Shown piece after piece: positions 4,405 through 43,273 of a stretch of DNA of 64,000 nt. The notes below the pieces were generated by a model. It searched no databases and was not told the DNA's origin. It saw nothing but the letters and a program-made list of their open reading frames with translations. Source of the stretch: an uncultured delta proteobacterium (GTDB lineage: Bacteria; Desulfobacterota; Binatia; DP-6); the NCBI GenBank assembly GCA_963815115.1, contig CAWFFN010000005.1, forward strand, positions 1,216,001 through 1,280,000, written 5' to 3'. The stretch's first letter is position 1. Each line of letters opens with the position of its first letter. The position numbers and the translations under genes were made by a program.

Positions 4405-4452
4405 GCTTGCCAAGCACAAGGTCGCCGGTTCGACTCGGTCACCCCGCACTCA
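4405..4452 (+). repeat. degenerate tRNA-Gly(GCC) 3' half (att-like)
   Basis: GC-TTGCCAA-GCACAAGGTC-GCCGG-TTCGACT-CGGTCACCCCGC: anticodon loop, T-arm and acceptor strand; no 5' half upstream. Confidence 0.65.
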
Positions 4453-4555
4453 GAAGGTCGCGGCTGCCGGGACCAACGTGGTCCGTTGGGCAATATCGGC
4501 GGTCGAATTTCCCATACGAGACCATGTGCGGTGCGTGGCACATCCACCCTGCGCG

Positions 4556-4789
4556 CTACGGATTCCGCCACCCGCGTGCCTGCATGCAGACGCTGAAGCG
4601 CTCGCGCGAGTACATCTTCCCCCCGAAGCCGCTCGGCCCTTTGTACGAGGCGCGCATGCAGTCTTGTCGGTCAGCGTAGTACTGGTTCGAGTGCGGGGCG
4701 TACTGCGGATGCACCCAGTCGTCGCACAGGCCGCACGCACTCAGCAGGATCAACGATGCGGCGATGCGGGCAGGAGCGCGATACCGCAA
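4556..4789 (-). CDS. small putative lipoprotein
   Basis: Signal peptide with LSAC lipobox; D..DC...CMQARGW pattern. Confidence 0.55.
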   Translation of the reverse strand: MRYRAPARIAASLILLSACGLCDDWVHPQYAPHSNQYYADRQDCMRASYKGPSGFGGKMYSRERFSVCMQARGWRNP

Positions 4790-5134
4790 GAGCCATTCGC
4801 ATCCGAATTCTCCGGCTAGTTCGCTGGCAACGTGTGCGTTCTAGCCCGCATTTCTCACCAAGCCAACGATCGGTGGTGCGCAGGCGGCCACCATCGGTCC
4901 GATTCCGGTGCTGGTGTCCGACGGGGCGCAGTCCGCGCCCCGTCGGACACCCAGGGCGACCGGCACCAGGTGGGATAGCCGGCGGCGGGCACTCCAGGAC
5001 CTCACGGCCGCCGCCGCCGGTTGGAGAAGAGGGACCGCCGACCGGGTGCGCCGTCAGCAGCGGAGCGGAGCGGCGCGCTGCAGGTTGGCCAGCGCTGCGG
5101 CGAAGAGGCGCTGCAGCGGGAAGACGCTGCTGAG

Positions 5135-5198
5135 CTGTGAAGGTGGAGATCTTCGCCGCCTCGCGGGGCAACAGCTCGCCGTCGACGTAGAGTTGCAT
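5135..5198 (-). pseudogene. N-terminal fragment resembling branched-chain amino acid aminotransferase
   Basis: MQLYVDGELLPREAAKISTF resembles the IlvE N-terminus, then similarity stops. Confidence 0.4.
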
Positions 5199-5252
5199 CG
5201 TCGCATCGTAGTGTCCGCCCGCGCGCCGAGTCGACATGAGCGGTCCGCGCGT

Positions 5253-5693
5253 TCAGTCGCAGATCGGCGTCTGCCCGAGGGTGGTCACTGTGCAGGCGAG
5301 ACCCGCACAGCAAAGCGTGATATTGCCGCATGGCGAGCCTGCCGGCAGGCAGGTCCCGTTGAGCTCTTGCGCGAGCTCCTCCGAGAATCGATCGACGAGC
5401 AGTGCGACGGACGGCGCGTCACCCGTGGCGCTGCATCCGCCCTTCGCGTCGATCTTCGCGAACGTCGTGCCGAGCGTCGCATGCGCGGCGTCGACGCAGG
5501 CGGGGTCCGGGTCGCTCCCCGTCTGGATCGCGTGGCGAAAGCATGCGTTCAGTGCCGACGATGCCTTGAGCGCCGCGTGCATCTTGGCGAAGCCGCACGC
5601 GACGGCGGGGTCGAGCGACGCCGCGCTCGCACCCGCGGCGAGGACCATGGTGAGCGCGAGGGCGCTGACCGATCGCCTGATTGAAGTCTGCAT
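5253..5693 (-). CDS. secreted Cys-rich protein: 4-Cys helical domain plus C-terminal knottin-like motif
   Basis: AGGAGGAG RBS, signal peptide, 10 Cys. Confidence 0.8.
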   Translation of the reverse strand: MQTSIRRSVSALALTMVLAAGASAASLDPAVACGFAKMHAALKASSALNACFRHAIQTGSDPDPACVDAAHATLGTTFAKIDAKGGCSATGDAPSVALLVDRFSEELAQELNGTCLPAGSPCGNITLCCAGLACTVTTLGQTPICD

Positions 5694-6150
5694 ATTCGTC
5701 TCCTCCTGCGTTGCGCGGTAGAGTGCCGGCGGTGCCGGCGTCGCAACGCGTCAGCACTCCTACGCGCGACGCGACCGTCCGGATGCGGCTCGACGCGACG
5801 CTGGCGCTCGGACGCCGGCCCGAACGTGCACGCCGCGGAAACATCGATCTTCTCGCTCGCGGCGGGCGCGATATCCCGTCGCCGAGGCCGTTGCTTCCGA
5901 TCCTGGTCGCCTTCACCACTAATACGGCTAGCAAGCTCGTCGCTGCGAGCGCAGCCGGAGGGCGTCGCTATGCGCCGCGGGTGGCCGCAGGCCGTCTGGC
6001 GCTCACGGTCGGGTGTGGGCAACCGTGTTGGTGGCGTCCCTGACAGCGGGTGGAGATCACGGGCTCCCGGCACCGGGGAGTGCGACCGCCGGCGCGCTCG
6101 GTAGGCCGATCCTCACCCGACCCGAACCTGCTCAGTCGGGCTGAAAACAC

Positions 6151-10084: not shown

Positions 10085-10228
10085 GGAGCCGGGCCCGCGG
10101 CGCGGACCGCTGTGGCGTCTAATAGGTCAGCCGATGACGCGGAGGCAACGGGCGGTCCTCGGCCCGGATTGCGTTATCCCGTTTCTGCTACCGCCGCCGA
10201 AAAACCCTAGTGCCGCAAGGGCCAACAA

Positions 10229-10279
10229 AGCTTCCCAAGCTGGACGTCACCGGACCGGTTCGACCCCGGTCGCACGCTC
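10229..10279 (+). repeat. tRNA-Gly(CCC) 3' half (att-like) with internal 5-bp duplication
   Basis: AGC-TTCCCAA-GCTGGACGTC-ACCGG-ACCGG-TTCGACC-CCGGT-CGCACGCTC. Confidence 0.7.
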
Positions 10280-10495
10280 TTCCGCGAATCGAAAAGTTGC
10301 AACATTTCAGGTGAGCAGGGCCGGCGTCCGTGCCAGGTCCGCGAACCGGGCGCCTGGGAGGGTCTGATCTGCATGAGCAGTCCAAAGCCTGAATGTGCGC
10401 TCGAGCGTGGCGCCGAGGGTTGCGGCCCGCAGGCGAAGAGCGGGCGAACATCGGGCCGGTTTTTAAGAGGTCATCTCGGCACGTTTTCGAGCACC

Positions 10496-10517
10496 CGTTG
10501 CCACTACGTTGCCACTA
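10496..10517 (+). repeat. perfect 11-bp tandem repeat, putative integrase arm-type sites
   Basis: CGTTGCCACTA x2, about 100 bp upstream of the tRNA-Ala half. Confidence 0.6.
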
Positions 10518-10619
10518 CGACCCCAAATGGTATCTCCGAGTAGCCCCGCGCAACTGCCACCTCGAGCAGTTCCGCGGGGATAGCCGTGCATAGGTCCGCG
10601 CAGGTGCACTGTCAGACAC

Positions 10620-10661
10620 ATGGCATTCAAGAGGTCGGGAGTTCGACTCTCCTCGGCTCCA
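10620..10661 (+). repeat. tRNA-Ala(GGC) 3' half, copy 1 (att site)
   Basis: ATGGCAT-TCAAGAGGTC-GGGAG-TTCGACT-CTCCTCGGCTCCA; begins at the anticodon loop; the 5' stem strand CTTGA is absent. Confidence 0.9.
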
Positions 10662-10723
10662 TTCTACCATCCCCATCATTCCCAATGCTTAGCGCTCGCT
10701 CGACTCAACCACGATCCCGGACC

Positions 10724-11592
10724 CTAGCGAGGTAGGGCCGAAGTAGGGCGGTCGCGCAGCGGCGTCACGGTCCCCGGGTCGCTGCGCCGAGCGCTCGCCC
10801 GCTCCGCCGCTTGGCGCATCACGTCGAGGTCGATGATGTGGTAGCGCCGCAGCATCGACGGCGTGCTGTGCCCGGAGAACGCCATCACGGTGTGCGGGTC
10901 ATTCCCGGGCGTCTCGATGAGGTGCTTCACGCCGGAGCGGCGGAGGTCATGGACAATGCGGGCCGTGGCGCCGATCGCCTTGCACGCCTTCGTCCACAGC
11001 TTCCGGAAGTCGCCGATGCGCCGTCCGTTTCGGTGGAAGACGTAGGGGCAGGTGAGATCGCGGGCAGCGAGCCGGCGCTCCATGATGACCGCCAAATCGC
11101 CCGCGATGGGGAGCGCCTTCGGCCTCTTGTTCTTGTGCAGCTCGGCCGGGAGCCGGATGGCAGATTCGGCTGCAAAGACGTGCTTCCATTCAAGGTGTCG
11201 CGCCTCGCCGATGCGCCACGCCGAAAAGAAGAGGAACAACACGAGGTCCGCGAGCGGGGCAGGAAGATGGGTTGCGAGGGCCTCGACCTGCTCGCGCGTG
11301 AAGAACCCCTTGCGGACCCGCGAGGGGTCCTCCGCCGGCTTCTCGATGTAGGGACGCGCGCGCTGGCTGATGAGCCGCTTCTGAACGGCGAGCTTAAAGG
11401 CGCGGTCAAGCAACGCCAGCTCGATGCGGAGCGTCGCATCGGCCGCTCCCTCAGCGCGCCGTGCCGCGACGTAGCCGTCGAGCCGTGCGCCCAGCTTGGT
11501 CACCTTCGCGCTGTCCCCGAAGTACTCGCGGAGGTGCTTGAAGGAGTACCGCATGGAGTCGATGGAGCGGTTGCGGCGCAGCTCGTAGTTTG
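10724..11592 (-). pseudogene. tyrosine recombinase/integrase, N-terminally truncated
   Basis: Catalytic WRIGE, HKNK, HDLRR, GHS, RRY; frame continues upstream of 11554 as NYELRRNRSIDS with no arm-binding domain; 3' end points at the att site. Confidence 0.85.
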
Positions 11593-11615
11593 GCGCGGAA
11601 GAAGGCGCTCGGGCT

Positions 11616-12209
11616 GTGAAGGATCAGGGGACCCTGATCGAGCGGTGGCGCGGTGCCTTCTTCGCGTTGTTGGAATCGAGCGAGACGGGACCACGGCTCA
11701 AAGAGGCGGCAGTTGAAGGTGCGCTGGGCGCCTGGACGGAGCATCTCACCGCTGCCGTGGTATCCGTCTGCGGTGCCATGAGCTGGAGAGCAGCAGGGCG
11801 GGGGCACCTGGGAGACGTGCTGCCCGTCCCTCGGAACGCGTATCTGGCGTTGGACATCGTAGCGTTCGCTCCCAACGCGGAGTCGCGGTGGCCGCTGCCC
11901 GTCGCCGTCTTCGAGTTGGAGAACAGCCCCACCCTGGACCGCGTCGCATACTCGCTCTGGAAGGTTCTCTGCGTTCGTGCCCCACTCCGAGTGGTGTTCG
12001 CGTATCGGCGTGACAGCTCGGAGGGGAGTGCGCTGGTGGGACAGCTCACCGACGCCGTGATTGCAGGCATGTTCATCGACGACCGCCTCGCGCTCGGCGG
12101 GGAGACGTGCCTGATCGTCGGCAACCGGGGTGAGGCGGAAACGTTCCCCTACGGCTACTTCAAGGGCTGGGTGCTGGACCCGAACACGGGCCGCTTCGCG
12201 CGGACCTGA
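11616..12209 (+). CDS. hypothetical protein, possible PD-(D/E)xK-like nuclease fold
   Basis: YLALDIVAF...VAVFELEN pattern; directly upstream of the DUF499 gene. Confidence 0.6.
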   Translation: MKDQGTLIERWRGAFFALLESSETGPRLKEAAVEGALGAWTEHLTAAVVSVCGAMSWRAAGRGHLGDVLPVPRNAYLALDIVAFAPNAESRWPLPVAVFELENSPTLDRVAYSLWKVLCVRAPLRVVFAYRRDSSEGSALVGQLTDAVIAGMFIDDRLALGGETCLIVGNRGEAETFPYGYFKGWVLDPNTGRFART

Positions 12210-12618: not shown

Positions 12619-13386
12619 TTACCCCTTCGGCCGGGGCTTCTTGCTGAGCCGCTCCTCGGCGACGCGCTTGCGGTAGCTCTCGCCTTCGATGGCGAGGATG
12701 TCGGCGTGATGGATGACCCGGTCGATGAGGCCGATGGCGGACGTGGCGTTCGGGAAGATGGTCGGCCAGTCGCTAAACGCCAAGTTGGTGGTGAGGATGA
12801 GGCTTTTGCGTTCATGCCGGCGGCTCACGACCTGGAAGAGCAGATCGGCGTTGCGGCTGTCGTACGAGAGGTAGCCGATCTCGTCGACGATCAGCAGGCT
12901 CATGCAGCCGCCGTAGTGCCGCAGCCGCCGGTCGAGGGCGCGGGCCGACTCCTGGGCGGCGAGGTCGAGGAGGAGTTGGCTCGCGGTGATGAAGCAGACG
13001 GAATGGCCGGCGAGCACGGCCTGATGCCCGATGTTCTGGGCGATCATCGTCTTGCCGAGGCCCTGCGGCGCGACGAGGACGATGTTGCGGGCTTCGGCGA
13101 GGAAGTCGAGGCGCACCGCGGCCTCGACGGCGGCGCGATCGATCTTCGTCGGCCACTGCCAGTCGTAGTCGGCCATCGGTTTGAAGCGGCCGAGGCGGCT
13201 GCGGGTAAGGCGGCGCTCGAGGCCGCGGCGCGCCCGGTCGTCCTGCTCGGTCTGGACGACGTGTTCGAGGAGCTGCGTGGGGCTCCAGCGATGTTTGGTG
13301 GCGAGCGCGATGAGGTCGTTGAGCTGCGTGGCCGTGGCGCGGAGCCCGAGGGTGGCGAGCAGCTCAGGCAGCGGGGTCGTCGTCAT
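12619..13386 (-). CDS. istB: IS21 helper ATPase IstB
   Basis: PQGLGKT Walker A, LLIVDEIGYL, LTTNLAFSDW, DRVIHHA, IEGESYR. Confidence 0.95.
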   Translation of the reverse strand: MTTTPLPELLATLGLRATATQLNDLIALATKHRWSPTQLLEHVVQTEQDDRARRGLERRLTRSRLGRFKPMADYDWQWPTKIDRAAVEAAVRLDFLAEARNIVLVAPQGLGKTMIAQNIGHQAVLAGHSVCFITASQLLLDLAAQESARALDRRLRHYGGCMSLLIVDEIGYLSYDSRNADLLFQVVSRRHERKSLILTTNLAFSDWPTIFPNATSAIGLIDRVIHHADILAIEGESYRKRVAEERLSKKPRPKG

Positions 13387-13891
13387 CGGAGGACTCCTGT
13401 CGCGTGGGCGTGACGCTGAGCGCGTCGTCGCCGGTGAGCGCGTGCGGGGTGACGCGGAGCTCGCGCACGCGCGGATCGTCGGGCAGCGGCACGACCAGCG
13501 GCGGGGCGATGCCCTGCGCGCGGGTCTGTTGATCGAGCAGATGGGCGACGGCCGGCGCGCCGACCGCCCCGCGGCGCAGCGCCTCGGCCAGCGCGGCATC
13601 GAGCGCGGCGGCCCCGTAGCGATCGTGGAGCTGGCCGAGCTGGCGGGTGTGGGGCGCGAGGGGCTGGCCGCGCTGCGCGAGCGCGTCGAGGAAGGCGACC
13701 GCCTGCGGGCACGTGGCGCGCAAGAGATCGCGGCCCCGCAGCTCCGCCGCCGCGCGTTTCACCGCGGCGAGGGCCGCGATGTGCGCGGGGTCTTCCACGA
13801 CGCGCCGGTGGTCGTAGCTGCGGGCATGGCGGGCGACTTCGGTCGCGCCGTCGAGGAGGCGGACGGTGTCCTCGCTCGCGACGAGCGTTAG

Positions 13892-15405
13892 CCTCAGTGA
13901 GACAGAAATTTACGCCGCCAAGAGGCGGTCGAGGCGTTTGAAGCGGTCGACGATGGCTGGGGCGGGGCCGACGTCGAGCGTCGCATAGCCATCGGGTCGG
14001 ACGATCACCCCGGCGCGGTGCAGGCAGAGGTAGCGCAGCGTGTGAATGGCCTCGAAGCGGAAGCGGCTGCGCCGCGTGCGGGTTGCCCCGCGGCGCTCGG
14101 CCGTCGTCGCGAGCTGAAAGCCGCGCATGAGGTTGAAGGCGAGGACGCTGAGCACTTGCCAGGCGCTGTTCGCGGCGTAGCGCATCGTGGGCACGGAGGC
14201 GAAGGCGAAGCCGCTCTTGCGCTCGCCGTACACCTTCTCGTGGACCCCGCGGCCACACATGAAGGCCCACAGCGCCGGCCCGCTGAGCGTCTTGTTCGTG
14301 ACGACGGCAGAGTACTCGTAGTGCCCGTCACTCGGGTCGAAGAGATCGAGCTGGAAGTTCTTGACCGTCTCGTGCTGGACCCGACGACGGTATAGGACGA
14401 TGCGGAAGCGCCGGCCGCCCCACGGCGCCAGCACGATGGTGTGCTCGGCGCAGCTCACCGTCTCCTCGACCCGTGTCCACACCCGCGTCTGCCGCACGCG
14501 TTGCTTGAGGCCGACCCACGCGTAGAAGGGCACCTTGATCGCGTACTCCGCCCCGGCCTGCTCCAGCTGCGCGATGATGTAGCGCCGGAAAAACGCCCCA
14601 TCCATGCGGAATTCGAGGGGGTAGCCCGCCCCGAGCGTCGCGCGGAGCTGGGCAAACAGGTCGCGCAAGAAGCGGCGGGCGGCCTTGGCGTCGTCCACGT
14701 TGCCCGGCCGGTTCTGGACCCGCAGCACTTGCCCGCTCTGCGCTTCGTAGGCCGTGATCGGGTAGTAGCTCGGCACCTTGCGGTGATGGGGATTGTAGCC
14801 GCGGTGCGCCCACTGGACCTGTTGGCCGGTGGACACCACCGACCCATCCACGTCGATTGTCAGGCGGCGCAGCCCCGTGTGCCGGATCGTCCGCGCCACC
14901 ACGAGCGCGTTCACCCACTGCAGCCGCGGCAGATGCCGGGCGCGGAACCCGGTGAGCCACCGGCCGACGGTCCGCGGTGTCGGGAGACGGGTCAGCCCGC
15001 ACAGCCGGAGCACGAGGGGATCACCGGCCAGGTAGCGCAGGTGGCGCAGCCGGCGCCCCCCGCTGATCACGAGCGTCAGCAGCACGAGGACCATCGCCGG
15101 CACGCCGAAGGCGCTCCGCGGCAGGCCCGTGCCGAGCTCGCGCCGCAGCACCGGCACCAAGCCGAGCAGGTCGACGTACCGGCGCACGAACTCGAGTCCA
15201 CCGTACGACGTGAGCCCCCGCTGCTCGAAGCGCAGCGCCAGATTCCCGTTGACCCGCCGCCGCAAATCCGCTTTTCTCCACCGCATTGGGAATGGCCTTT
15301 CGTTGAGGGTGCTTTCGTTGGCTCGACACCACGAATTTACCACAACGGAAGGCCTTCTCATTCTCTGCGCGTCACGCGCTCCCTCGATTTTTCGTCATAT
15401 CGAGG
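13892..15405 (-). mobile_element. IS1380-family element
   Basis: Ends CCTCAGTGAGACAGAAA and revcomp CCTCGATATGACGAAAA; flanked by TTAG/CTAG. Confidence 0.8.
13910..15286 (-). CDS. IS1380-family DDE transposase
   Basis: LTSYGGL, TIDVDGSV, RPGNV, RMDGAFF, RGVHEK motifs. Confidence 0.9.
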   Translation of the reverse strand: MRWRKADLRRRVNGNLALRFEQRGLTSYGGLEFVRRYVDLLGLVPVLRRELGTGLPRSAFGVPAMVLVLLTLVISGGRRLRHLRYLAGDPLVLRLCGLTRLPTPRTVGRWLTGFRARHLPRLQWVNALVVARTIRHTGLRRLTIDVDGSVVSTGQQVQWAHRGYNPHHRKVPSYYPITAYEAQSGQVLRVQNRPGNVDDAKAARRFLRDLFAQLRATLGAGYPLEFRMDGAFFRRYIIAQLEQAGAEYAIKVPFYAWVGLKQRVRQTRVWTRVEETVSCAEHTIVLAPWGGRRFRIVLYRRRVQHETVKNFQLDLFDPSDGHYEYSAVVTNKTLSGPALWAFMCGRGVHEKVYGERKSGFAFASVPTMRYAANSAWQVLSVLAFNLMRGFQLATTAERRGATRTRRSRFRFEAIHTLRYLCLHRAGVIVRPDGYATLDVGPAPAIVDRFKRLDRLLAA

Positions 15406-16409: not shown

Positions 16410-16784
16410 TCATGCGACCGCCCGGCGGCGCAGGAGCCGGCGTACGTCCGCGAACGCCCCCGAGCCCGTCCCCGGTGCAGGATCGGCCGGCACGGCGTCA
16501 TGCCGGACGCACGCGACGGTGACGGCGACCGGCCGCGTGACGGTCTCCAGCGTGTCGAGCCAGCGTGGTGTGGCGCAGAAAGCGCCCCGGCCGACCACAG
16601 CGATGGCAACGCGGCACGGGCGCCCCGTCCACAGCGTCAGGGCCTCGGCCAGCGCCAGCACGGCGCGAGGATGGGCCGGACTGTGCGGCAGCCGGGCCTT
16701 GAGCAGCGGGGTCGACCCGTCGTGGACCAGGACGCGCGTCGCCAGCGGCCCCGGGACCACGCCCATCGCGAGCGGCAACGACAT
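16410..16784 (-). CDS. IS21-associated accessory protein
   Basis: GAGGAGGTG RBS; stop overlaps the istA ATG (ATGA). Confidence 0.7.
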
Positions 16785-17981: not shown

Positions 17982-17988
17982 ACCCAGC

Positions 17989-31435: not shown

Positions 31436-31462
31436 AACGGGTCACAGGGGCTACCACTGCTC

Positions 31463-33444: not shown

Positions 33445-33529
33445 GCCGGGCACGCCCAGTGCAGCGCTCCCGCGCGACCGCGCTTTGATTCGCGCATGTC
33501 CGCGTGGCTTGATCGCCTCGGAGGTGCCC

Positions 33530-34384
33530 ATGGAGCAACTGAACTACGAGGAGTTCGTCCGCGAGCTCGAGGCTGATCCGCGTACGCTGGTGCGGGTGGA
33601 GCGCCCGCGACCGCATGCCGCCGTGCTTCGTGTCGACGACCCCACGAACATGAACGCGCTTTCGGGGCCCCTGACCGTGCAGCTCCGCCGGGCGCTCGCG
33701 GGCGCGCTCGGCGATCCGTCCGTGCGCGCCGTCGTGCTCACCGGCACCGGTCCGTTCTTCTCGGTGGGCGGCGACTGGAAGCTCATGCGCGACCGCGCGC
33801 ACACGGCGGAAGGACGTGACGAGGGCTCCGTCGGCATCTGGAAGTGGATCCGCTACCAGTTCGGTGGCATCGCGCGCCTCATCGCTCAGTCCGACACCCC
33901 GGTCGTCGTCGCGCTGAACGGCACCGTCGCCGGTGTCGCCCTCGCCTGGACGCTCTCGAGCGATCTCGTGGTCGCGTCCGACCGCGCGCAGCTCGTCCTC
34001 GCCTTCGGCCGCATCGGCCTCGTGCCCGAGGTCGGTACCAACTGGGCGCTCACGCGCCGGGTGGGACACCGCAAGGCCTTCGAGCTCTTCGTCCGCGGCG
34101 GCACCGTGGCCGCCGACGAGGCGCTCGCGCTCGGCCTCGTGAACCAGGTCGTCCCCCACGACGGCCTCCTCGATGCGGCGCTCGGGTGGTGCGATCGCAT
34201 CGTGCGCCTTCCCGAGCACGTGGTCTCGATGACGAAGCCCCTCATGCGGGCGGCGGCCGACATGAGCTGGCAGCACGCGATCTTGACGGAGGAGTTCGCC
34301 GAGCCGATGACGTTCACGACAGGCGCCCATCGCCGCGCGGTGGACGCGCTGCTGGCGAAGACCGAGCGGGCGGTCGAGCAGTAG
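33530..34384 (+). CDS. enoyl-CoA hydratase/isomerase family protein
   Basis: MNALS, FSVGGD, FGRIGLVPEVG, EALALGLVN. Confidence 0.9.
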   Translation: MEQLNYEEFVRELEADPRTLVRVERPRPHAAVLRVDDPTNMNALSGPLTVQLRRALAGALGDPSVRAVVLTGTGPFFSVGGDWKLMRDRAHTAEGRDEGSVGIWKWIRYQFGGIARLIAQSDTPVVVALNGTVAGVALAWTLSSDLVVASDRAQLVLAFGRIGLVPEVGTNWALTRRVGHRKAFELFVRGGTVAADEALALGLVNQVVPHDGLLDAALGWCDRIVRLPEHVVSMTKPLMRAAADMSWQHAILTEEFAEPMTFTTGAHRRAVDALLAKTERAVEQ

Positions 34385-34470
34385 GCCGCCGGGCGACCGT
34401 ACGTTCCCCGGTCGGTCACGATTGCCCACGCCGGGTCGAGCGCGTCGGTCTCTGTTGAACCCCGGATCCG

Positions 34471-34896
34471 CTACCCGTGGGGCTGGTCGACGGGTTCTCC
34501 GGCCGCCTTCCAGCCCTTGAGTCCGTCGACCATGACGCTCACGTCGGTGTACCCGGCTTCGACCGCCCGACGGGCAGCCGCGTGGGACGCCAGTCAATGG
34601 ATGTTCGCGCAGTAGAAGACCAGCCGGGCGTCCTTCCGAGGCGGCAACTCCTTCGCCACGTCGTACTTGTTGTCACTCGACAGGAGGACCGCGCCGGGAA
34701 TGACGCCCTCTCGCGCCCGGAAGTCCGGCGCGTTGGCGTCGAGCACCGTGACGGCCGCGTTCGGGGCGGCTCTCAGGGCGACGAGGTCGTTCACGTGGAT
34801 CAGCTTGAAGCCGTCGCCCGCTGGCGCCGCAGTCGCCGTCCCGCTCACGAATACGGCAAGCACGAATACGGCGGGCAACAGCCGAACGAGTCGCAT
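34471..34896 (-). CDS. exported rhodanese-like protein, probable selenoprotein (UGA at 34594-34596)
   Basis: GVIPGAVLL..LVFYCANIH-UGA-LASHAAARRAVEAGYTDVSVMVDGLKGWKAAG: the domain continues in frame past the TGA. Confidence 0.8.
34561..34579 (-). promoter_or_regulatory. candidate bacterial SECIS hairpin
   Basis: GGCTGCCC-GTC-GGGCGGTC; the G-initiated loop starts 23 nt after the UGA. Confidence 0.6.
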
Positions 34897-35064
34897 GTCC
34901 GGATCGTAGCTCGACCGTCGCTCTGGCACAACGAGAATACCCGGATGCCTCTCCTCCACGACCAGCCGCCGCCCGCGCTCGCGCGACTTGGCTTCGGCGG
35001 GAGACATGGCTAGACCCTTGCACGCTCCAGTTGCCGACAACTCGTAGGAAAGAGGGATTAGATC

Positions 35065-36207
35065 ATGCCGATTTCGCGCTCCATCTTCCGGTCGATCGGT
35101 GCAGGGCTGGCGATCATGCTCGCTGCCTCGGGCCCCGCATCGGGCGCTGACGCCGCCGTGACGTGTAGCGCCGCCAAGGGCAAGGCGGCGGGGACGAAGG
35201 TCGACGGGAAACTCGCCTGCGCGGCCAGGGCCGCAATCAAGGGTGAGGCCGCAGATCCTCTGTGCCTGGCGAAGGCGGAGCACCGGTTCGAGCGTGCCTT
35301 CGAGAAGGCGGAAGACAACGCGCAATCCAGCGGCGGCTGCGCGACGGTCGGCGACGCGGCGGAGGTCGAGGCGCTGGTCGACGCGTGCGTGAACGACGTC
35401 CGGAGCCGCCTCGGCGTCGCGGGCGCAGCGCAGGCCGCCTCGAGGTGTACGGCCGACAAGCTGCGTGCCACGGGAACGGCCGTGAATGGCAGTCTGGTGT
35501 GCTGGGCCAAGGCGGCGGCGCGTGGGGCAGCCGTCGACTCCGACTGTCTGGCGAGGGCAGCGGCGAGATACGGCAACGGCTTCGCGAGGGCGGAATCGAG
35601 GGGCGACTGCCTCACGACCGGCGATGCGGCGGCGGTCTTCACGGCGGTCGACGACTGCGTCGCTGCCATCGTCCCGGCACTGGGCGGCTCATCGACGACC
35701 ACCACCATCACGAGCCCCGCCTCGACCACGACGACACTCGCGTGCGGCACCGAGCCGGCGGCGGTCCGAGGCGTCACGGCACGGCACAACCAGGTGCGCG
35801 CGAGCGCGACGCCGGCGCCCAACCCTCCGCTGAACCCGCTCTGCTACAGCACGACCGTGCAGGCGACGGCGCAGGCGTGGGCCGATCGCTGCCACTACGA
35901 GCACAACACCGCGCTGCGCGGTGTCTACGGCGAGAACATCGCTGCCTACGGATCGGCTTCCGGTACGGTGGTGGGCGCGGCCGGGCTCTGGGCTGCCGAG
36001 GCGCCGAACTACACCTACTCCAACAATCGCTGCTCCGGCGTCTGCGGCCACTACACCCAGATGGTCTGGCGGTCGACGCAGCGGCTGGGGTGCGGGATCA
36101 AGGTGTGCACGACGGGATCGCCCTTCGGGCACGACTACCCGACGTGGACCTTCATCGTCTGCGACTACGATCCGCCGGGGAACTGGGTGGGGCAGAAGCC
36201 GTACTGA
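35065..36207 (+). CDS. secreted protein: two 4-Cys helical domains, Thr linker, CAP/SCP (PR-1-like) domain
   Basis: HNQVRA, YGENI, GHYTQMVW..TQRLGCG, VCDYDPPGN. Confidence 0.9.
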   Translation: MPISRSIFRSIGAGLAIMLAASGPASGADAAVTCSAAKGKAAGTKVDGKLACAARAAIKGEAADPLCLAKAEHRFERAFEKAEDNAQSSGGCATVGDAAEVEALVDACVNDVRSRLGVAGAAQAASRCTADKLRATGTAVNGSLVCWAKAAARGAAVDSDCLARAAARYGNGFARAESRGDCLTTGDAAAVFTAVDDCVAAIVPALGGSSTTTTITSPASTTTTLACGTEPAAVRGVTARHNQVRASATPAPNPPLNPLCYSTTVQATAQAWADRCHYEHNTALRGVYGENIAAYGSASGTVVGAAGLWAAEAPNYTYSNNRCSGVCGHYTQMVWRSTQRLGCGIKVCTTGSPFGHDYPTWTFIVCDYDPPGNWVGQKPY

Positions 36208-36507
36208 CCGGGGTACGCAGCTTGCCGCGTGCGACCGATGGCAGCGACATGCCATGGGGGGGAAGTCCACATGCGCGGCTCGCGAGGACGTCTGGGCGGT
36301 TCCAGTGTGCTCCTGTCGGGTGCGTTCCCGGTCGTGTGGGCCGCCGGCGCTCGGGCGCAGGTGCCCTTCGAGGGTGGGACCGCAGATCGCCGGCGCTCGT
36401 CTCCAGCACTGCGCCGGACCGGCCATGCATTGCCGACGCGGAGCGTCGCCCACCCGTGGCCAACGCGGCTCCCGGAGGTGTCCCGCCGTCGGCCCGTGGC
36501 GGCCGGG

Positions 36508-36897
36508 TCAGTAGCCGGCGAGGAGCAGCCCCGCCGCGAGCACGAGGCCGGTGGCGCCCATGGCATGGAGCACCCGCGGATCCATCGCACGCGCCCGCGC
36601 TCCGGACATCGCCGCGCGACGATCATCCGTGACGACGACGTAGTCCGCCAGCGCGACCACCGCGGTGAGGCACAGCCCCAAGGCAAGTGGCCCGCGTCGA
36701 TGCTGGAAGGCGATCACGGCGAGGAGCCCGCCGATCACGACGTCCCGCGCGCCCATCGCGCGAATGAACGCGAGCCCTCGCGGATCGTCGAGCACGATCC
36801 CGTACAGCACAGCCGATCGGCGTGGCGCCGCGAGTGCCCCGAAACCGACCGCGACGAGGGAGATGATGACCGCCGCCGACAACGCCCATCCGAGCAT
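36508..36897 (-). CDS. DUF4267-like membrane protein
   Basis: YGI...AMGARDVVIG; four hydrophobic segments. Confidence 0.7.
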   Translation of the reverse strand: MLGWALSAAVIISLVAVGFGALAAPRRSAVLYGIVLDDPRGLAFIRAMGARDVVIGGLLAVIAFQHRRGPLALGLCLTAVVALADYVVVTDDRRAAMSGARARAMDPRVLHAMGATGLVLAAGLLLAGY

Positions 36898-37152
36898 CGG
36901 CCCCGGGGTATCAGAGCCGCGACCTGCGGTCACGACAGCTCCGGTAGTTCCGGCGCAGTATCCCGGCCGGCGCCGTGAGATGCCGCTCGACCGGCCCTCG
37001 GCGATCCCGAGCAGCACCCGAGCGCACGCTGCACCGGCGTGCCGTCGTGCCGCGGTCATCTGGGGCGTGTCCGCGGTGAGCACCGACCCGCCGTCGGACC
37101 TCGCCGGCCGCGGCGCGACTTCGTTGCCCGTGCCGTGATAGGAGGTGGTCCC

Positions 37153-38541
37153 ATGCAGGCCGCCGCAGCTCCGCTGCCGGGCGTCGGATCGCCGCTCCCG
37201 CCCGGACCGCGCACGCCGCGCCTCTGGCAGAGCCTCTCCTACGCCCTCCGGCCCTATGCCACCGTCGAGTCCGCGCGACCGTGGGGTGACCGGTATACCG
37301 TCGAGGCCATCGGCACGCGCGGGAAGCTCGTCGTGTTCTCGGATCCCGAGGCCGTCAGGGACATCTTCGGCAGCGACGGCGATACGCTCCGCGCCGGCGA
37401 GGCCACCGGTGCGATCCTCGGTCCCCTCATCGGCTGGCACTCGCTTCTCGTCCTCGACGGGGAGCGGCATCTGCATGAGCGGCGACTGATGAGCCCGCCG
37501 TTCCACGGCGAGCGCATGCACGTCTACGGCCGCCTCATGCGCGACATCGCGGTGCGCGCGATCGCGCGCTGGCCGGTGGGCCAGCCATTCCCGATCCATC
37601 GCGAGATGCAGGCGATCACGCTCGACGTCATCATCCGCGCGGTGTTCGGCGTCGATCAAGATGCGCTGTTCACGAAATTCCGCGCCGAGGTCGCACGCTT
37701 CGTCGCGCAGGTGAACGGCCCCTCGGCATCGTTCATCGCACTGCACCCGTTCCAGGTCGATCTGGGTCGCTTCTCGCCCTGGGGCCGGTTCGTGCGCAAC
37801 CGCCAGGTGATCAGGGACAGCGTGCTCGCCGAGATCAAGCGCCGGCGCGGCGATGGCGTGGCGGGGCGCACGGACATTCTGTCGCTCCTCCTCGAGGCCC
37901 ACGACGAGCACGGCGAGCCGATGCAGGACGACGAGCTGGTCGACGAGATGTTCACCTTGCTGATGGCCGGGCACGAGACCACCGCGACCTCGCTCGCCTG
38001 GGTCGTCTGGCACCTGCTCAACCATCCCGGGGTGATGGCGAGGCTGCGCGAGGAGATCGCGCGGGTGACCGGTGGTGCGGACCTTGAGGCGGAGCATCTC
38101 CCCCGCCTCGAGTACCTCGATGCGGTCATCAAGGAGTCGATGCGCTTGACACCTGTCGCGACCATGGTCGCCCGCCGGCTCCACGCGCCCGCGCGCGTCG
38201 GCGGCCTCGACCTCCCGGCCGGAACGAGCGTCGGCGCGAACATCTACATGGCGCACCGCCGGCCGGAGGCCTGGCCGAACCCCGAGCAATTCGACCCCTC
38301 CCGCTTCCTGGGTGCCCGTCCCAATCCGTTCACCTTCTTCCCCTTCGGCGGCGGCGTCCGGCGCTGCCTCGGCGCGGCCATCGCGACCTACGAGATGAAG
38401 ACGGTCCTGCCCGAGATCCTGTCACGGGTCGACCTCCGCATCGCGCCCGGCTACCGCATGCGGCCGGTCCTCCGCGCTGTCACGATCGCGCCGTCGCGCG
38501 GGATGCCGGTCGTCGTGGAGCGCCGGCGCCAACCCGGGTAA
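37153..38541 (+). CDS. cytochrome P450
   Basis: AGHETT, ESMR, FDPSRF, PFGGGVRRCLG; GGAGG RBS. Confidence 0.95.
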   Translation: MQAAAAPLPGVGSPLPPGPRTPRLWQSLSYALRPYATVESARPWGDRYTVEAIGTRGKLVVFSDPEAVRDIFGSDGDTLRAGEATGAILGPLIGWHSLLVLDGERHLHERRLMSPPFHGERMHVYGRLMRDIAVRAIARWPVGQPFPIHREMQAITLDVIIRAVFGVDQDALFTKFRAEVARFVAQVNGPSASFIALHPFQVDLGRFSPWGRFVRNRQVIRDSVLAEIKRRRGDGVAGRTDILSLLLEAHDEHGEPMQDDELVDEMFTLLMAGHETTATSLAWVVWHLLNHPGVMARLREEIARVTGGADLEAEHLPRLEYLDAVIKESMRLTPVATMVARRLHAPARVGGLDLPAGTSVGANIYMAHRRPEAWPNPEQFDPSRFLGARPNPFTFFPFGGGVRRCLGAAIATYEMKTVLPEILSRVDLRIAPGYRMRPVLRAVTIAPSRGMPVVVERRRQPG

Positions 38542-38636
38542 CGCCGCGCTCGCCCGTGATCGTCCCGGTGGCGCCAGCGGCCGGAGCGCGCGCATCAACT
38601 CAAAGGATACATCCCGCTGCCATCACTCGGCTCTGC

Positions 38637-38822
38637 TCACGCCTTCTTGTTCTTCGATCCCGGCGGACGGCCGGGGCCACGGCGACGCCTGCGACGGCGG
38701 CGGCCGTTCTTCGGCTTCGTCTTCCTCGGGGAGACGCTTCCGAGTAACGCCTGGATCGCAGAGCGCACCTCCTGTTGCACCATGTCCCGGATGATCGTCA
38801 GCAAACTCTTCTGTCTCGGCAT
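38637..38822 (-). CDS. small basic protein with AT-hook-like tail
   Basis: AAAGGA RBS; RRRRRRRGPGRPPGSKNKK. Confidence 0.7.
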   Translation of the reverse strand: MPRQKSLLTIIRDMVQQEVRSAIQALLGSVSPRKTKPKNGRRRRRRRRGPGRPPGSKNKKA

Positions 38823-38942
38823 CGAGTCATCCTTTCGGGCGGCAGATACACGAATGGGCGATCATCGGCAAAGGCAGTGAGACAGGCGAGCCAGCTTCAG
38901 GAGAACATGCAGGCGGTACCACAGCCACAGCGGCGCGCCCGA

Positions 38943-39671
38943 CTACCAGCGGCCGAAATGAGAGCCGCCATCGACGTACAGGATGTGACCGGTGACCGTC
39001 GCGGCATCCGTGAGGTACATGACCGCGTCCGTGATGTCCTTCACCGTCGAGGGCCGACCCATCGGCGACAGGCTCTCCATCACGTCCTGCGGAGTCTCCC
39101 GGTGAAGCGGCGTGTAGACGACGCCAGGCGCGACGGCGTTCACCCGGATGCCGTCTTGCGCGTACTCCATCGCAAGGTGCTGGGTGACCGTCTCAAGACC
39201 GCCTTTGGTGACCATGGGCACGGCCGCCGTGACGCCCCGGATCGGGTTGCGAGCAAGGGCCGCCGTGATCGTGACGATGCTCCCGCCGGTCTTCTGCGCC
39301 AACATGTGCTTGATGGAGAGCTGGGTGACGTACAGGAAGCCCTCGATGTTCGTCGAGACGAGCGACCTGAAGTCCTCGGCCGTGTAGTCGGTGAACGGCT
39401 TGGTGAAGAAGATGCCGGCGTTGTTGACCAGTGCGTCGATCGACTTGAAGCGCGACAGCGCCGTCTCGACGATCCTGGCGGCAGTTGCCGGCTCGCCGAT
39501 GTGGCCGTCCACCAGAGCGACGTGGTCGGAAGCCGCGACCTCGCCGGACTGGGTCATCTTGCGGGAATTGGCAACCACGTTGAAACCGCGTTCGACAAAC
39601 CCTTTCACGATTCCCGCGCCTATCCCCTGCGAAGCTCCGGTCACCAGGGCAGTCTTCCGTGGGTCGCTCAT
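38943..39671 (-). CDS. SDR family oxidoreductase
   Basis: TGASQGIG, NNAG, RVNAVAPG, VDGG. Confidence 0.95.
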   Translation of the reverse strand: MSDPRKTALVTGASQGIGAGIVKGFVERGFNVVANSRKMTQSGEVAASDHVALVDGHIGEPATAARIVETALSRFKSIDALVNNAGIFFTKPFTDYTAEDFRSLVSTNIEGFLYVTQLSIKHMLAQKTGGSIVTITAALARNPIRGVTAAVPMVTKGGLETVTQHLAMEYAQDGIRVNAVAPGVVYTPLHRETPQDVMESLSPMGRPSTVKDITDAVMYLTDAATVTGHILYVDGGSHFGRW

Positions 39672-39738
39672 CGTCGTTTAGCCCTCGAAGCCGATCGCCC
39701 AGAGATGAGCAGAACCCGGCATCATGGAATTTGTGGGC

Positions 39739-40725
39739 CTACTGTTTGTTCGACATGAAACCGCGAACGAGGTCGGCAATCTCATCGGCGGCGGTATCCA
39801 GGGCGAAGTGCCCCGCATCGAGGAGGTGAACCTGGGCCTTCGGAACGTCACGGTGGTACGCCTCGGGCTCCGTCAGCTCAAACGACAGGTCGTACTTTCC
39901 CCAGAGCACCAGCAGGCGCGGCTGGGTCTTTTGCATCCATGCCTGCCATTTCGGGTAGGCGTCCACGTTGGTGCGGTAGTCGTAGAACAGATCGCTCTGG
40001 ATGTCGGCCTCTCCTGGCTTGTTCAGGAACGCGTATTCGTCGGTCCAGAGATCGGGATCGTACTTCTCGGGGTTCGGGTCGTTGCCGACGTGACGCGTCC
40101 GCGTGGTGTCCAGAGAGAGCAGGTTGGTCCGCAGCGCAGCCTCGTGTGAGGTGCGGTCCGCCCAGAACGCACGCCTCGTCTTCCAGTTGTCGCCGAGCCC
40201 TTCGTTGTGGGCGACGGCATCCTGAACGATCAGGGCTTCGACGCGATCCGGGTGAGCGAGCGCCATCCGAAAGCCGACCGGTCCGCCGTAGTCCTGCATG
40301 TAAAGGGTGTACCTGGTCAGGTTCAACGCCTCGGTGAAGTGATCCATCACCTTGGCGATGCTGTCGAAGGTGTACGAGAACTCCTTCGGTGTCGGCGCGT
40401 CGCTGTGCCCGAAGCCCGGATAGTCGGGAGCGACCATGTGAAACTGGCCCGCCAGCCGCCCGAGCAGCGGCTCGAACATGCGCGACGACGACGGAAGGCC
40501 GTGAAGCAGCAGCATGGTCGGGGCGTCGTTCGGCCCGGCTTCGCGGTAGAAGATGGAGAGGCCGTCCACGTTCACCGTACGGTACGAGACATGCTGCGCC
40601 ATCGCAGGCTCCTTCGACTGGGCGGCGAGCATGTTGCCGGACAGAATGGACACGGCGACCAGACCGGGCCACGTCATCCTCGGGGAGAACATGTCACGTA
40701 CCCTCGGCGGCAAAAGCGTCATCAA
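39739..40725 (-). CDS. alpha/beta hydrolase (epoxide hydrolase-like)
   Basis: LLHGLP, PDYPGFG, QDYGG, AGHFAL; start uncertain. Confidence 0.9.
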   Translation of the reverse strand: MMTLLPPRVRDMFSPRMTWPGLVAVSILSGNMLAAQSKEPAMAQHVSYRTVNVDGLSIFYREAGPNDAPTMLLLHGLPSSSRMFEPLLGRLAGQFHMVAPDYPGFGHSDAPTPKEFSYTFDSIAKVMDHFTEALNLTRYTLYMQDYGGPVGFRMALAHPDRVEALIVQDAVAHNEGLGDNWKTRRAFWADRTSHEAALRTNLLSLDTTRTRHVGNDPNPEKYDPDLWTDEYAFLNKPGEADIQSDLFYDYRTNVDAYPKWQAWMQKTQPRLLVLWGKYDLSFELTEPEAYHRDVPKAQVHLLDAGHFALDTAADEIADLVRGFMSNKQ

Positions 40726-40770
40726 TCATGGCCGGTGAGATGTGGTCCGAGTAACCGCCGACGACCTTGG

Positions 40771-42129
40771 TCACGCGGCCCCGCGCGGAACGAAACGTTT
40801 GACCTTTCCGGAAATCTGACGCGACAGCTCCGGCACCTGCTCGAGAATCACGGCGGGGTCCGAGAGGCCGCAGCGGCGCAGCTCCGCTTCGAGAGTGCCG
40901 GCCAGTTCCGGCAGCTCGACCGGTCCGTTCGCGCAGAGGCGCACCCGGATCCCCCGGTCGGTCTGGATCACCTGGTACTCGACCACGTGCCGATGGCGGC
41001 CGAGCGGAGCGCGGATGGTGAGCGGATGCACGCAGACCCCACCCGGGTAGGTGAAGGCATCGTCGCTCCGTCCGAGCACGTGATCGATGCGACGTGACTC
41101 CACGCCACAGGCGCATGGCTCCGCGAGCACGACCATCTGGTCGGTCACCTCGTAGCGGATCAGCGGCTGGACGAGATTGTAGAGATTGGTGATGAGCAGC
41201 TTCGCGGCCTGCGTGCCGGGCGGCACGGGGCGGTCCGCATCGTCGACCAGCTCGATGTAGTAGAGGTCGTCGGGCAGATGCATCGCGTCGCCCGCGCGGC
41301 ACGGGATGGCGTACGGTCCCTCGGACATGCCGTAGTAGTTGTGGACGTGAACCGGCCACGCGGCCTCGATCTCGTCACGGGCCTCCGGTAGGAGCGGCTC
41401 GCCACACGTGAACACCGATTGCGGCGCGATGACCAGCCGACCGGCCCTCGCCTCCCCCGCGAGGAGCGCGAGCGTCGAGGCGTACCCCGACAGGGTCCGC
41501 GGCTGGAGGGCGTTGAGCCGCTGCACCATGTCCGCGAGGGGCAAGGTCGGGGCGATGCTCGTGAGCTCTACGGGCGGTGGGAAGACCTCGAGGGAGACCC
41601 ACGAGACGTGCGCTCCGCGCGGAGCCCAGAGGTTTGCCCAGGGAGCCTCAGCCGGAAAACCGTTCCTCATCCGCCAGCGGGCGAGCTGGCACGTGAAGAT
41701 GATGAACGCGTCCCAGTCGTACGCGAACACGCCCCGGCGTCCGCTCGACCCCCCGGACGCGATGACGAGATAACGATCGAAGAGATAGAGGTTCTCGGGG
41801 GGGTGCTCCACGTAGCTGTCGACGGCAGCGCGCGTGAGACGCGGATCGGTCACGACGGCCTCGAAATTGTCCATGAGGTCGCCTTTGGTCATGATCGGTA
41901 GCGAGCGGAGATCCGTCTCCGTGAAGGCCGCCGCATCGACGTGGCGGAGGCGATCGCGATGCCACGCCGAGCGTGCCTGTGCGGTCGCGAGCAACACCCG
42001 CATGCGCCGCTCGCGCTCGACTCGGAGCTGGGCCGCCGGCCACTCGAGTTGGCTCAGATATCTCGGGAGGGCAGCATCCCTCTCGGCAGCATGACGGGTC
42101 CGCAGTTCCTCGAACGTGCCGTGTGACAT
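40771..42129 (-). CDS. phenylacetate-CoA ligase family protein
   Basis: SGGSSG, YYGMSE, TNLYNLVQPLIRYEVTD, GRSDD. Confidence 0.9.
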   Translation of the reverse strand: MSHGTFEELRTRHAAERDAALPRYLSQLEWPAAQLRVERERRMRVLLATAQARSAWHRDRLRHVDAAAFTETDLRSLPIMTKGDLMDNFEAVVTDPRLTRAAVDSYVEHPPENLYLFDRYLVIASGGSSGRRGVFAYDWDAFIIFTCQLARWRMRNGFPAEAPWANLWAPRGAHVSWVSLEVFPPPVELTSIAPTLPLADMVQRLNALQPRTLSGYASTLALLAGEARAGRLVIAPQSVFTCGEPLLPEARDEIEAAWPVHVHNYYGMSEGPYAIPCRAGDAMHLPDDLYYIELVDDADRPVPPGTQAAKLLITNLYNLVQPLIRYEVTDQMVVLAEPCACGVESRRIDHVLGRSDDAFTYPGGVCVHPLTIRAPLGRHRHVVEYQVIQTDRGIRVRLCANGPVELPELAGTLEAELRRCGLSDPAVILEQVPELSRQISGKVKRFVPRGAA

Positions 42130-42346
42130 GGCTTCCCCTGCCACGCGCCGTTCGGTGCGGTCAACGACTGGCGTGCGGAGGGCCGCCTCCGGCTGGCGGC
42201 TGCGGCACCGGGTGCAGCCGGCGGAGGTCGATGCCGGGCGGGGATCCACCGGCTGCGTCAGTCCGGTTGCGTTCGAGCGCCAGTACGGGGAGAAGCAGGA
42301 AGCGCAATCAACGCAACGCGGATCCAGGGATGTCGAGAGGCCCGCA

Positions 42347-42772
42347 ATGAAGTCTCGCTCCGCACGCTGCCATTGCGGGCAACTCGAACTCACATGTTCT
42401 GGTGAGCCGAGGCGGATCTCGATGTGTCACTGCCTCGAATGCCAGCGTCGCACGGGCAGTGTCTTCAGCGTCGCGGTCTTCTACGAGCGCGGCAGGGTGC
42501 GCATCGAGCGCGGCACATCCGAGGTCTTCGAGCGCGGATCCGCCAGTGGCTTTCCCGTGAGGTTCCACTTCTGTGGCCGATGTGGATCGAACGTGTACTG
42601 GGAGCCGGTGCGGATGCTCGACCTCGTCGGCGTCGCGGTCGGCGCATTCGGGGACCCGACCTTCCCCCGACCGGCGCAGTCGGTCTGGACGAAGGACAGG
42701 CACGCGTGGATCGGTCTTCCAGAAGACATGGCGACGTTCGAGTCGAACCCGCCGCCTCGCGGCGTGCGGTAG
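42347..42772 (+). CDS. GFA family protein
   Basis: CHCG, CHCLECQRRTG, FCGRCGS. Confidence 0.9.
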   Translation: MKSRSARCHCGQLELTCSGEPRRISMCHCLECQRRTGSVFSVAVFYERGRVRIERGTSEVFERGSASGFPVRFHFCGRCGSNVYWEPVRMLDLVGVAVGAFGDPTFPRPAQSVWTKDRHAWIGLPEDMATFESNPPPRGVR

Positions 42773-42826
42773 CCTGCACGCTGTGGAACGTGTCTTCGAA
42801 TGTCCCGGCTTGTAGCGGAGGTGTCT

Positions 42827-43153
42827 ATGGTATTCCGAAACATTGAGCGGCAAGGAACTCGATGGAAGTTCGATTGCGACAGCGGAAGGGAATATCGCAT
42901 CTCCGCGACTAAGACAGGGCAGGCCGACGCCAGCCTCGAATTCTTCGGTGACAACGGCACGCATTTTAGATGCAGCGGTCGGTGCGGTCCGCAAAAGTGG
43001 GTCGCCGGCGAGACGACCAACTACGTGCACGCCAGCGTCTCGAGGGTTTCCATGGAAACGGTATCCGAGAGCCGTGATTCCGATGATCTCTGGACCTGCT
43101 CCTTTCGGAAGGATGCGACGTCGTTCTCGTTTACGATACAAATAGTGCACTAG
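42827..43153 (+). CDS. hypothetical protein
   Basis: GGAGGTG RBS; lower-GC ORF just upstream of tRNA-Ala copy 4. Confidence 0.5.
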   Translation: MVFRNIERQGTRWKFDCDSGREYRISATKTGQADASLEFFGDNGTHFRCSGRCGPQKWVAGETTNYVHASVSRVSMETVSESRDSDDLWTCSFRKDATSFSFTIQIVH

Positions 43154-43230
43154 CAGAAGGCCTGAGAGGTGCGGCGGGCATCTTGCGGTAGTGCTCGGTG
43201 TGGGTGGCCGGCCATGTTTCCATGAGCACG

Positions 43231-43273
43231 GAATGGCACTCAAGAGTTCGGGCGTTCGACTTCCATTGGCTCC
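43231..43273 (+). repeat. degenerate tRNA-Ala(GGC) 3' half, copy 4
   Basis: GAATGGCACTCAAGAGTTCGGGCGTTCGACTTCCATTGGCTCC aligns to copies 1-3 with several differences. Confidence 0.7.

Follow-up and report, generated by a model that had tools for sequence, protein, structure and literature searches.

What produces a stretch of bacterial chromosome in which segment after segment ends in half a tRNA? We addressed this question for a locus of 64,000 nucleotides (hereafter the window; C5:1216001-1280000) in the genome G000 (6.89 Mb, 12 contigs, ~70% GC), which belongs to an uncultured soil lineage labelled Deltaproteobacteria. An earlier inspection (the sequence-only reading) had noticed six co-oriented 3' halves of three different tRNAs in this window, and had proposed that they serve an integron-like platform for gene capture. 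We arrive at a different answer: the window is the middle of a variable region of ~90-95 kb on the 1.8-Mb contig C5, and this region was very probably built by tandem accretion of islands into tRNA-Ala(GGC), accompanied by decay and mosaic reshuffling. Specifically, we found the features of an accretion array, including a proximal co-oriented tRNA, a fixed start of the repeats, an adjacent integrase, arms that bear repeats, and a variable region with flanks.

We searched for tRNA halves by BLAST and by ungapped scans, because covariance models do not pick up halves. All 60 tRNAs called by ARAGORN were compared with the whole genome and with a 98-kb region around the window, and the 42-nt Ala half was additionally used to scan all 6.9 Mb without gaps. 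These searches confirmed the six halves, all on the plus strand and at the starts that had been noticed (Table 1), and the spacing that had been estimated was borne out by start-to-start intervals of 5824, 391, 12441, 670 and 19500 bp. In the 98-kb region, the six halves have E values of 7e-15 to 3e-8, and all remaining matches outside the intact tRNA-Ala gene have E >= 6e-4. The Ala halves span position 33 to the 3' end of the G000 tRNA-Ala(GGC), and when printed in register all of them start where the 7-nt anticodon loop (ATGGCAT) starts (position 32/33). We take a start in the anticodon loop to be the mark of the anticodon-loop class of tRNA-targeting integrases. Our data support the idea that anticodon-loop-type tyrosine integrases left the halves behind as relics of recombination sites, and that these halves bound units of foreign DNA. 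Half 4 was the sole match of at least 34/42 bases outside the true tRNA-Ala genes and their halves in the ungapped scan, and it is the oldest detectable scar. The ARAGORN total of 60 is inflated by several odd calls of 86-99 nt (such as tRNA-Pyl, tRNA-Asp(atc), and long Ala-CGC, Arg-CCG and Ser-CGA calls), which look like false positives in GC-rich DNA.

We then asked where the parent tRNA of the Ala halves is. The sequence-only reading had seen no full tRNA, which holds for the window (ARAGORN 0; Rfam 0, at the gathering cut-off and at E <= 10) but not for the locus: an intact tRNA-Ala(GGC) lies 13.4 kb upstream (C5:1202551-1202625, plus strand; window -13449..-13375), in the same orientation as all four Ala halves. 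tRNA halves without a visible parent gene are usually such window-edge effects. A full-length integrase gene (392 amino acids; L001:6655-7833, minus strand; PF00589, E 4.7e-12) starts 30 bp behind this tRNA. The single integrase open reading frame (ORF) in the window, which had correctly been described as truncated, starts 62 bp behind half 1 and is 54% identical to the 392-amino-acid integrase; its N-terminal ~75-115 residues are gone, and the conserved Arg, His-x-x-Arg and Tyr columns are kept. Both integrases score 46-48 bits against PF00589, a family with 18 matches in the whole genome, 2 of which lie within the array region. A search for loci related to the integrase returned 2 loci only, and tblastn with all 21 tyrosine-recombinase ORFs of the genome revealed no further integrase relic in the 98-kb region. 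The integrases matched 0 of 18,950 NCBIfam models at E <= 1e-3, and a comparison with PDB sequences gave 0 matches. With the parent tRNA-Ala and a full-length cognate integrase upstream, the Ala series is therefore a canonical tandem array. Just upstream of the full-length integrase gene, we also observed an ORF of 58 amino acids (L001:7830-8006, minus strand) with weak similarity to ribbon-helix-helix (RHH) proteins (E 0.008, below the cut-off), which is a candidate excision factor.

In addition, the DNA upstream of the halves has the layout of attachment (att) sites. Two copies of GTGCGGG or GGGGCGG are followed by CGTCCGCGAC-type and then GCGCACCGT-type repeats, the latter beside the core. 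This order is found in 6 out of 10 aligned arms (halves 2 and 3 of G000, three arms in the congener G001 and one in G017), and the three arms of a further genome, G030, form a separate group in the alignment. The 19-mer GGGGCGGTTCTGGGGCGGT of the second arm is found exactly once in the window, against 0.08 expected, and the 20 kb upstream contain another exact copy, against 0.03 expected, at L001:6702-6720, 77 nt behind tRNA-Ala; that is, two copies in 84 kb, both at att positions. Judged by their sequence, the arm repeats are features of double-strand att sites with arm-type, putatively protein-binding sites and not chance repeats. The Ala modules fold no better than shuffled sequences (z -0.5 to -1.9), and neither does the Gly-CCC module (z +0.1 and +0.8). 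Among the Ala, Gly-CCC and Thr modules compared, significant folding was limited to the Thr module: this module (L033:660-808; C8:770760-770908) forms a long DNA hairpin (z -2.9 and -4.2 for the two strands), and GCCACCCGCCGGA in its arm is the reverse complement of the final 13 nt of the tRNA half.

The units between these sites measure 0.63, 12.4, 19.5 and 24 kb and carry genes on both strands. Island 1, which extends over 23,994 bp from tRNA-Ala to half 1 and has both Gly halves inside, encodes the integrase, an IS4 (insertion sequence) transposase, an aldo-keto reductase, an IS110 fragment, acyltransferases, a lipase, F420-type reductases, methyltransferases, DJ-1, a DUF6632 protein and a sigma-54 activator. 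Island 2 (12,398 bp) holds the truncated integrase together with IS21, IS4-like and IS3 debris; its IS3-family element was probably active recently, because three other copies in the genome are nearly identical to it (Table 1). Unit 3 (23103-23730; 628 bp) contains hicB and hicA as its sole genes, plus an arm of ~140 nt, and unit 4 (19,460 bp) carries genes of lipid and xenobiotic metabolism without an integrase. These last two units are bounded by halves on both sides and show no integrase similarity, as expected of cis-mobilisable elements (CIMEs), and the observation that most units lack an integrase is upheld. As a block, unit 4 was kept in 0 out of 12 relatives searched; pieces of 2.0 kb and 0.55 kb occur at 95-97% identity in G001, near that genome's own array. 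We called genes with a codon-usage model trained on G000 and scanned 60 ORFs of the region against Pfam, which revealed no conjugation or mobilisation genes and no primase/helicase replication module.

Table 1. Features of the array region, in window coordinates
Feature	Position	Strand	Details
tRNA-Gly(GCC) 3' half	4405..4450	+	41-nt alignment, 90% identity, E 2.9e-8; begins at tRNA position 31
tRNA-Gly(CCC) att module	10161..10282	+	~68-nt arm (10161-10228) and 3' half (10229-10279)
Arm before Ala half 1 (right end of island 1)	10481..10619	+	GTTGCCACTAC direct repeat x2, ~10497-10519
tRNA-Ala(GGC) 3' half no. 1	10620..10662	+	42/42 bases; attR-type (right attachment site) scar of island 1
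Truncated tyrosine integrase, island 2	10724..11623 (PF00589 ORF 10724-11554)	-	276-299 amino acids, E 1.8e-12
IS debris of island 2	12619..20286		IS21 IstB, DDE transposase, IstA remnant, methyltransferase, IS3 copy
IS3-family element	18550-20286		99.7-99.9% identical to copies at C7:923262, C8:781127, C9:103261
Arm before Ala half 2	22922..23060	+	contains 19-mer GGGGCGGTTCTGGGGCGGT at 22936-22954
tRNA-Ala(GGC) 3' half no. 2	23061..23102	+	42/42 bases
hicB	23159-23350	+	HicB_lk_antitox, E 6.8e-7
hicA	23343-23567	+	HicA_toxin, E 2.1e-15
Arm before Ala half 3	23592..23730	+	GTGCGGG, CGTCCGCGAC and GCGCACCGT repeats; 81-88% identical to G001 arms
tRNA-Ala(GGC) 3' half no. 3	23731..23772	+	41/42 bases
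Unit 4 genes	23773..43232		acyl-CoA ligase, 2x WS/DGAT, phosphorylase-like, LysR, ADH, enoyl-CoA hydratase, CAP, P450, SDR, hydrolase, GFA
Degenerate tRNA-Ala(GGC) 3' half no. 4	43233..43274 (43231 in the sequence-only reading)	+	34/42 bases

To delimit the region, we compared it with relatives. The left flank (M23 peptidase and tRNA-Ala) is conserved among them. In 4 of the 7 relatives compared downstream of tRNA-Ala (G002, G005, G018 and G006), the sequence 6-16 kb past the tRNA aligns colinearly with C5:1293-1310 kb of G000, and the variable region of G000 therefore measures ~90-95 kb and extends past the window end. The other three (G001, G003 and G017) have their own islands or a contig end in the stretch compared. 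The parts common to G000 and G001 are the att modules only (arms 81-88%; half and integrase 3' end 94% over 221 nt), and the cargo is not common. Within a sample of 201 genomes of the class, the Ala-half pattern is present in 91, in at least two copies in 11, and in at least three copies in 5 (G000, G001, G030, G075 and G138).

A compact array was observed in G030 (contig C62; L019:1882-5100), where tRNA-Ala(GGC) is followed by Ala halves at +0.86, +1.77 and +2.53 kb, which close units of 0.7-0.9 kb. These units encode BrnT and its RHH partner, a weakly matching PemK-like pair (E 9e-4) and HicAB; after the third half comes a pair of PemK and RHH genes (E 2e-23). All three halves have common arms of ~140 nt; no integrase was found in the 9.3 kb examined at this locus, and the best integrase homologue of this genome, 34% identical, is on a different contig. 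In G165 (contig C26; L030:3813-4660), a BrnT-like ORF and a possible antitoxin-like ORF flank an Ala half on opposite sides.

We propose that the array of G000 grew as follows, although the order of events is one that we infer. An incoming element would have carried an attachment site (attP) with a copy of the 3' portion of the tRNA, beginning at the anticodon loop, as the biology of tRNA-targeting integrases suggests. The tyrosine integrase of the element would have rebuilt the tRNA at the proximal junction, and the earlier 3' half would have been displaced distally as an attR-type scar with the arm of the element still attached. Island 1, which has the full-length integrase beside the tRNA, would be the newest unit. 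Older units would have decayed through IS insertion, truncation of the integrase and deletion, which would leave CIME-like, att-flanked units without an integrase, such as the 628-bp HicAB unit and the 19.5-kb metabolic unit. The Gly halves would have reached island 1 by secondary mosaic rearrangement among island regions, and would not be working dividers of the Ala array. The array shows stages of decay side by side, from an intact integrase through a truncated integrase and a toxin-antitoxin (TA) pair with an att arm to an eroded scar. As an island array anchored at a tRNA, it is large and well resolved; it comes from an uncultured soil lineage and provides concrete att arms and an integrase pair.

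Next, we considered all halves of the genome. A random scatter had been named by the sequence-only reading as an outcome that would speak against it, and this is not what we observed. From the BLAST table we counted 28 tRNA 3'-half fragments, 17 of which lie downstream of, and co-oriented with, a parent tRNA on the same contig (Thr-CGT 5, Ala-GGC 3, Arg-ACG 3, Lys 2, and one each for Ala-CGC, Gly-GCC, Met and Arg-TCG). One further half is inverted within its own array, three are not assignable (tRNA-Gly(CCC) at a contig end), and seven are on a contig other than that of the parent (Gly-CCC 4, Gly-GCC 1, Val 1 and Leu 1). The halves follow their tRNAs as insertion scars do and are therefore not randomly scattered.

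The two Gly halves of the window had been regarded as dividers on a par with the Ala halves, a view that we could not sustain. They lie inside island 1, which is a mosaic with near-identical pieces of other island regions: window -1444..1054 corresponds to C8:777374-779870 (99.4%, 2.5 kb), window 5138-6111 to C9:383085-384054 (97%), and window 6116-6940, with DJ-1, to C8:768359-769182 (97.9%), just behind a Gly(CCC) half there. The Gly(CCC) module (122 nt) is 86% identical to C8:714697-714812, with unrelated DNA on both sides; the alignment of its half at 10229 covers 51 nt with 86% identity and includes an insertion of 5 nt. The Gly(GCC) half at 4405, also within island 1, has diverged from the host gene on contig C7, and the arm behind it shows no similarity to that of the Gly-CCC half on C8. 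Matches to the Gly(CCC) and Thr(CGT) patterns never occur on the same contig in the 20 relatives examined, and the multi-copy cases are simple same-strand pairs; the mixing of the two identities is therefore specific to G000. We see an even chance that the Gly halves are att modules of Gly-specific elements that a recent rearrangement in G000 brought into island 1.

Further observations concern the Gly and Thr sites elsewhere in the genome. A second mixed array on contig C8 (C8:696366-809460; 113 kb) consists of tRNA-Thr(CGT) followed by six Thr halves, one of them inverted, among which three Gly(CCC) halves are interleaved; five of the Thr halves carry a common module of ~205 nt with sharp edges. 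The C8 copy of the IS3 element adjoins the inverted Thr half and segments common with island 1. We rejected an ancestral adjacency of tRNA-Thr(CGT) and tRNA-Gly(CCC) as the cause of the mixing, given that their matches never share a contig in the 20 relatives, and we also rejected a serine recombinase for the Thr and Gly arrays, given that all 4 PF00239 matches lie elsewhere. The sole intact tRNA-Gly(CCC) is at a contig end (C9:2-74), and contig C12 starts with its 3' half (C12:1-47); the assembly apparently breaks at the repeated Gly(CCC) module. A 5' half of tRNA-Gly(GCC) (positions 1-41) is present at C7:457609-457649; the intact gene follows 11.5 kb downstream of it, and a 3' half lies a further 5.6 kb past the gene. 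The pairing of a 5' and a 3' half suggests elements that duplicate either side of the anticodon loop.

It is important to point out that several observations weigh against accretion as we describe it. No tyrosine or serine recombinase was found near any Thr, Gly(CCC) or Gly(GCC) site in the whole genome. The Gly-CCC module of island 1 comprises just 122 nt between unrelated DNA. The two arms of island 1 differ, with GGGGCGG-type repeats behind the tRNA and GTTGCCACTAC before half 1, which is not obviously predicted by a single simple element. Beyond half 4, the variable region continues for 34-38 kb, in which the 98-kb BLAST detected no half. Conservation of the right flank does not extend to all relatives: past the final half of G001, the sequence corresponds to C5 at ~760 kb, which points to a rearrangement. 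Finally, no excision, circle or empty-site junctions were observable in the fragmentary metagenome contigs, so that any activity is putative. Public runs, all of them contigs (best run: 0.28 of sampled words), carry no weight either way on excision or empty sites: over window 8000-27900 they gave many joints that were short-sided and came from other organisms, and no joint coincided with 10620, 23061 or 23731.

Of the alternatives, the integron-like platform itself survives best. It states that modules of an arm and a tRNA half are reusable att sites, and that integrase-less units are moved between the Ala, Thr and Gly arrays by integrases acting in trans; if true, it would make the locus a tRNA-half-based functional analogue of an integron. 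An integrase is indeed absent from 3 out of 4 Ala-delimited units with a half at both ends, but the array is headed by the cognate tRNA and a full-length integrase, and its units, of 0.63 to 24 kb and with both strands coding, differ from the short, co-oriented and mostly single-gene cassettes of integrons. Mixed-identity arrays do occur at two loci, and Thr and Gly-CCC modules with conserved arms recur beside different cargo and without an integrase nearby; however, such mixing was not seen in the 20 relatives, the Ala and Gly modules show no significant folding of the kind expected of attC sites, which form imperfect hairpins, and the integrases fall into no NCBIfam family (0/18,950). The best support for mobilisable mini-units comes from the 628-bp HicAB unit, which retains a repeat-bearing arm of ~140 nt, and from the G030 run, in which three units closed by Ala halves each contain only a TA pair and have common arms, with the best integrase homologue on another contig. 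Against this, the 56 nt between half 2 and hicB lack the repeat motifs seen behind the tRNA, and 0 out of 9 hicBA homologue loci in other genomes (77-91% DNA identity) have a tRNA half within 1.5 kb. Arrays with at least three copies are limited to 5 of the 201 class genomes. The sequence-only reading had also set its platform against fixed remnants of decayed islands, and this is what the congener G001 contains: its array of three Ala halves keeps only C-terminal integrase stubs. Overall, we consider a capture platform unlikely.

The halves could also have arisen from one another, if a single att module was duplicated locally or multiplied by unequal crossing-over, instead of through independent integrations. 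Halves 1-3 are identical at 41-42 of 42 positions, halves 2 and 3 continue with the same first downstream bases (CTTTTTC), and two halves in G075 have identical upstream flanks of 32 nt. However, each attP has to match the tRNA, so identical halves are expected in any case. The arms that precede halves 1, 2 and 3 are unlike one another, the cargo is unrelated between units, and a separate, diverged integrase paralogue (54% identity) lies behind half 1, which together make duplication very unlikely. We give almost no credence to an assembly artefact, in which a false array was created during metagenome assembly by joining unrelated contigs at the 42-nt halves. Contigs C9 and C12 do have ends that fall within copies of tRNA-Gly(CCC), and genome contamination is stated as 2.98%, but the array is inside a 1.8-Mb contig, the flanks of every half are unique and combine plausibly with integrase genes and arms, and comparable arrays are present in the independent genomes G001, G030 and G075.

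Beyond the array, we noted an ars-type operon directly behind half 4 (43425-45783), which encodes two low-molecular-weight phosphatase/ArsC-like proteins, an Acr3-type SBF transporter and ArsR. Two tandem genes for proteins of ~700 amino acids (60746-62854 and 63129-65414, past the window end) are 93% identical in protein, and further copies with ~80% DNA identity are located at C8:359975-366548 and C9:1268732-1270361.

How does accretion into tRNA-Ala(GGC), as we propose it here, compare with known systems? Chromosomal integrons resemble the array in having units between recombination sites, TA units among them, and a majority of units without a recombinase of their own. Unlike in integrons, the sites here are tRNA 3' halves with double-strand-type arms and not folded attC sites, no IntI signature is present, unit sizes and orientations are mixed, and the array is not conserved across the lineage. 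The ssrA-linked tandem islands of Dehalococcoides, for which the portion of the source drawn on here describes site-specific integration at a single small-RNA gene (PMC3146451), also target a single small-RNA gene; the target is transfer-messenger RNA there and a tRNA here.

Close parallels are found in the tycheposons of Prochlorococcus, where, in the sections of the report used here, tRNAs act as island seeds with partial tRNAs and fragmented integrases (bioRxiv 10.1101/2020.12.28.424599). As in the present array, a tRNA is the seed, nothing but a partial tRNA stands between neighbouring elements, additional partial tRNAs and broken integrases are dispersed through the island, and older material is distal. 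Unlike in the tycheposon islands described there, the ORFs scanned here include no primase/helicase, the host genome is large and rich in GC, and the integrase is a divergent PF00589 protein without an NCBIfam or PDB match.

Another close likeness is to the CIMEs and the integrative and conjugative elements (ICEs) of the ICESt1/ICESt3 type in streptococci. Within the excerpts of the source that we rely on, accretion proceeds by integration, decay to a CIME that keeps both attachment sites (attL and attR), and entry of a further element into an att site, and transfer of CIME-ICE tandems is described (PMC5704250). The array differs from these in that no conjugation or mobilisation genes were found in the 60 ORFs, the host is an uncultured soil organism, halves of other tRNAs are embedded, and the present array is known from sequence alone. 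The embedded halves and the units with only a TA pair, which also occur in G030, go slightly beyond the textbook picture and would matter if they are mobile. Mobilisation in trans of integrase-less units is, according to the same excerpts, an already published concept (CIME, accretion; PMC5704250), and may putatively apply here. The mechanism put forward in the sequence-only reading is in essence this accretion and cis-mobilisation model, as far as those excerpts present it, and not a new kind of system. In the streptococcal systems and in the present array alike, the 3' end of the target gene is repeated as co-oriented att sites, a functional element adjoins the intact target, older units keep their att sites without integration genes, and composite units could be excised from the outer sites. 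Together, these likenesses indicate that the array at tRNA-Ala(GGC) fits the published descriptions of accretion, CIMEs and tRNA-seeded islands, within the parts of those sources cited here.

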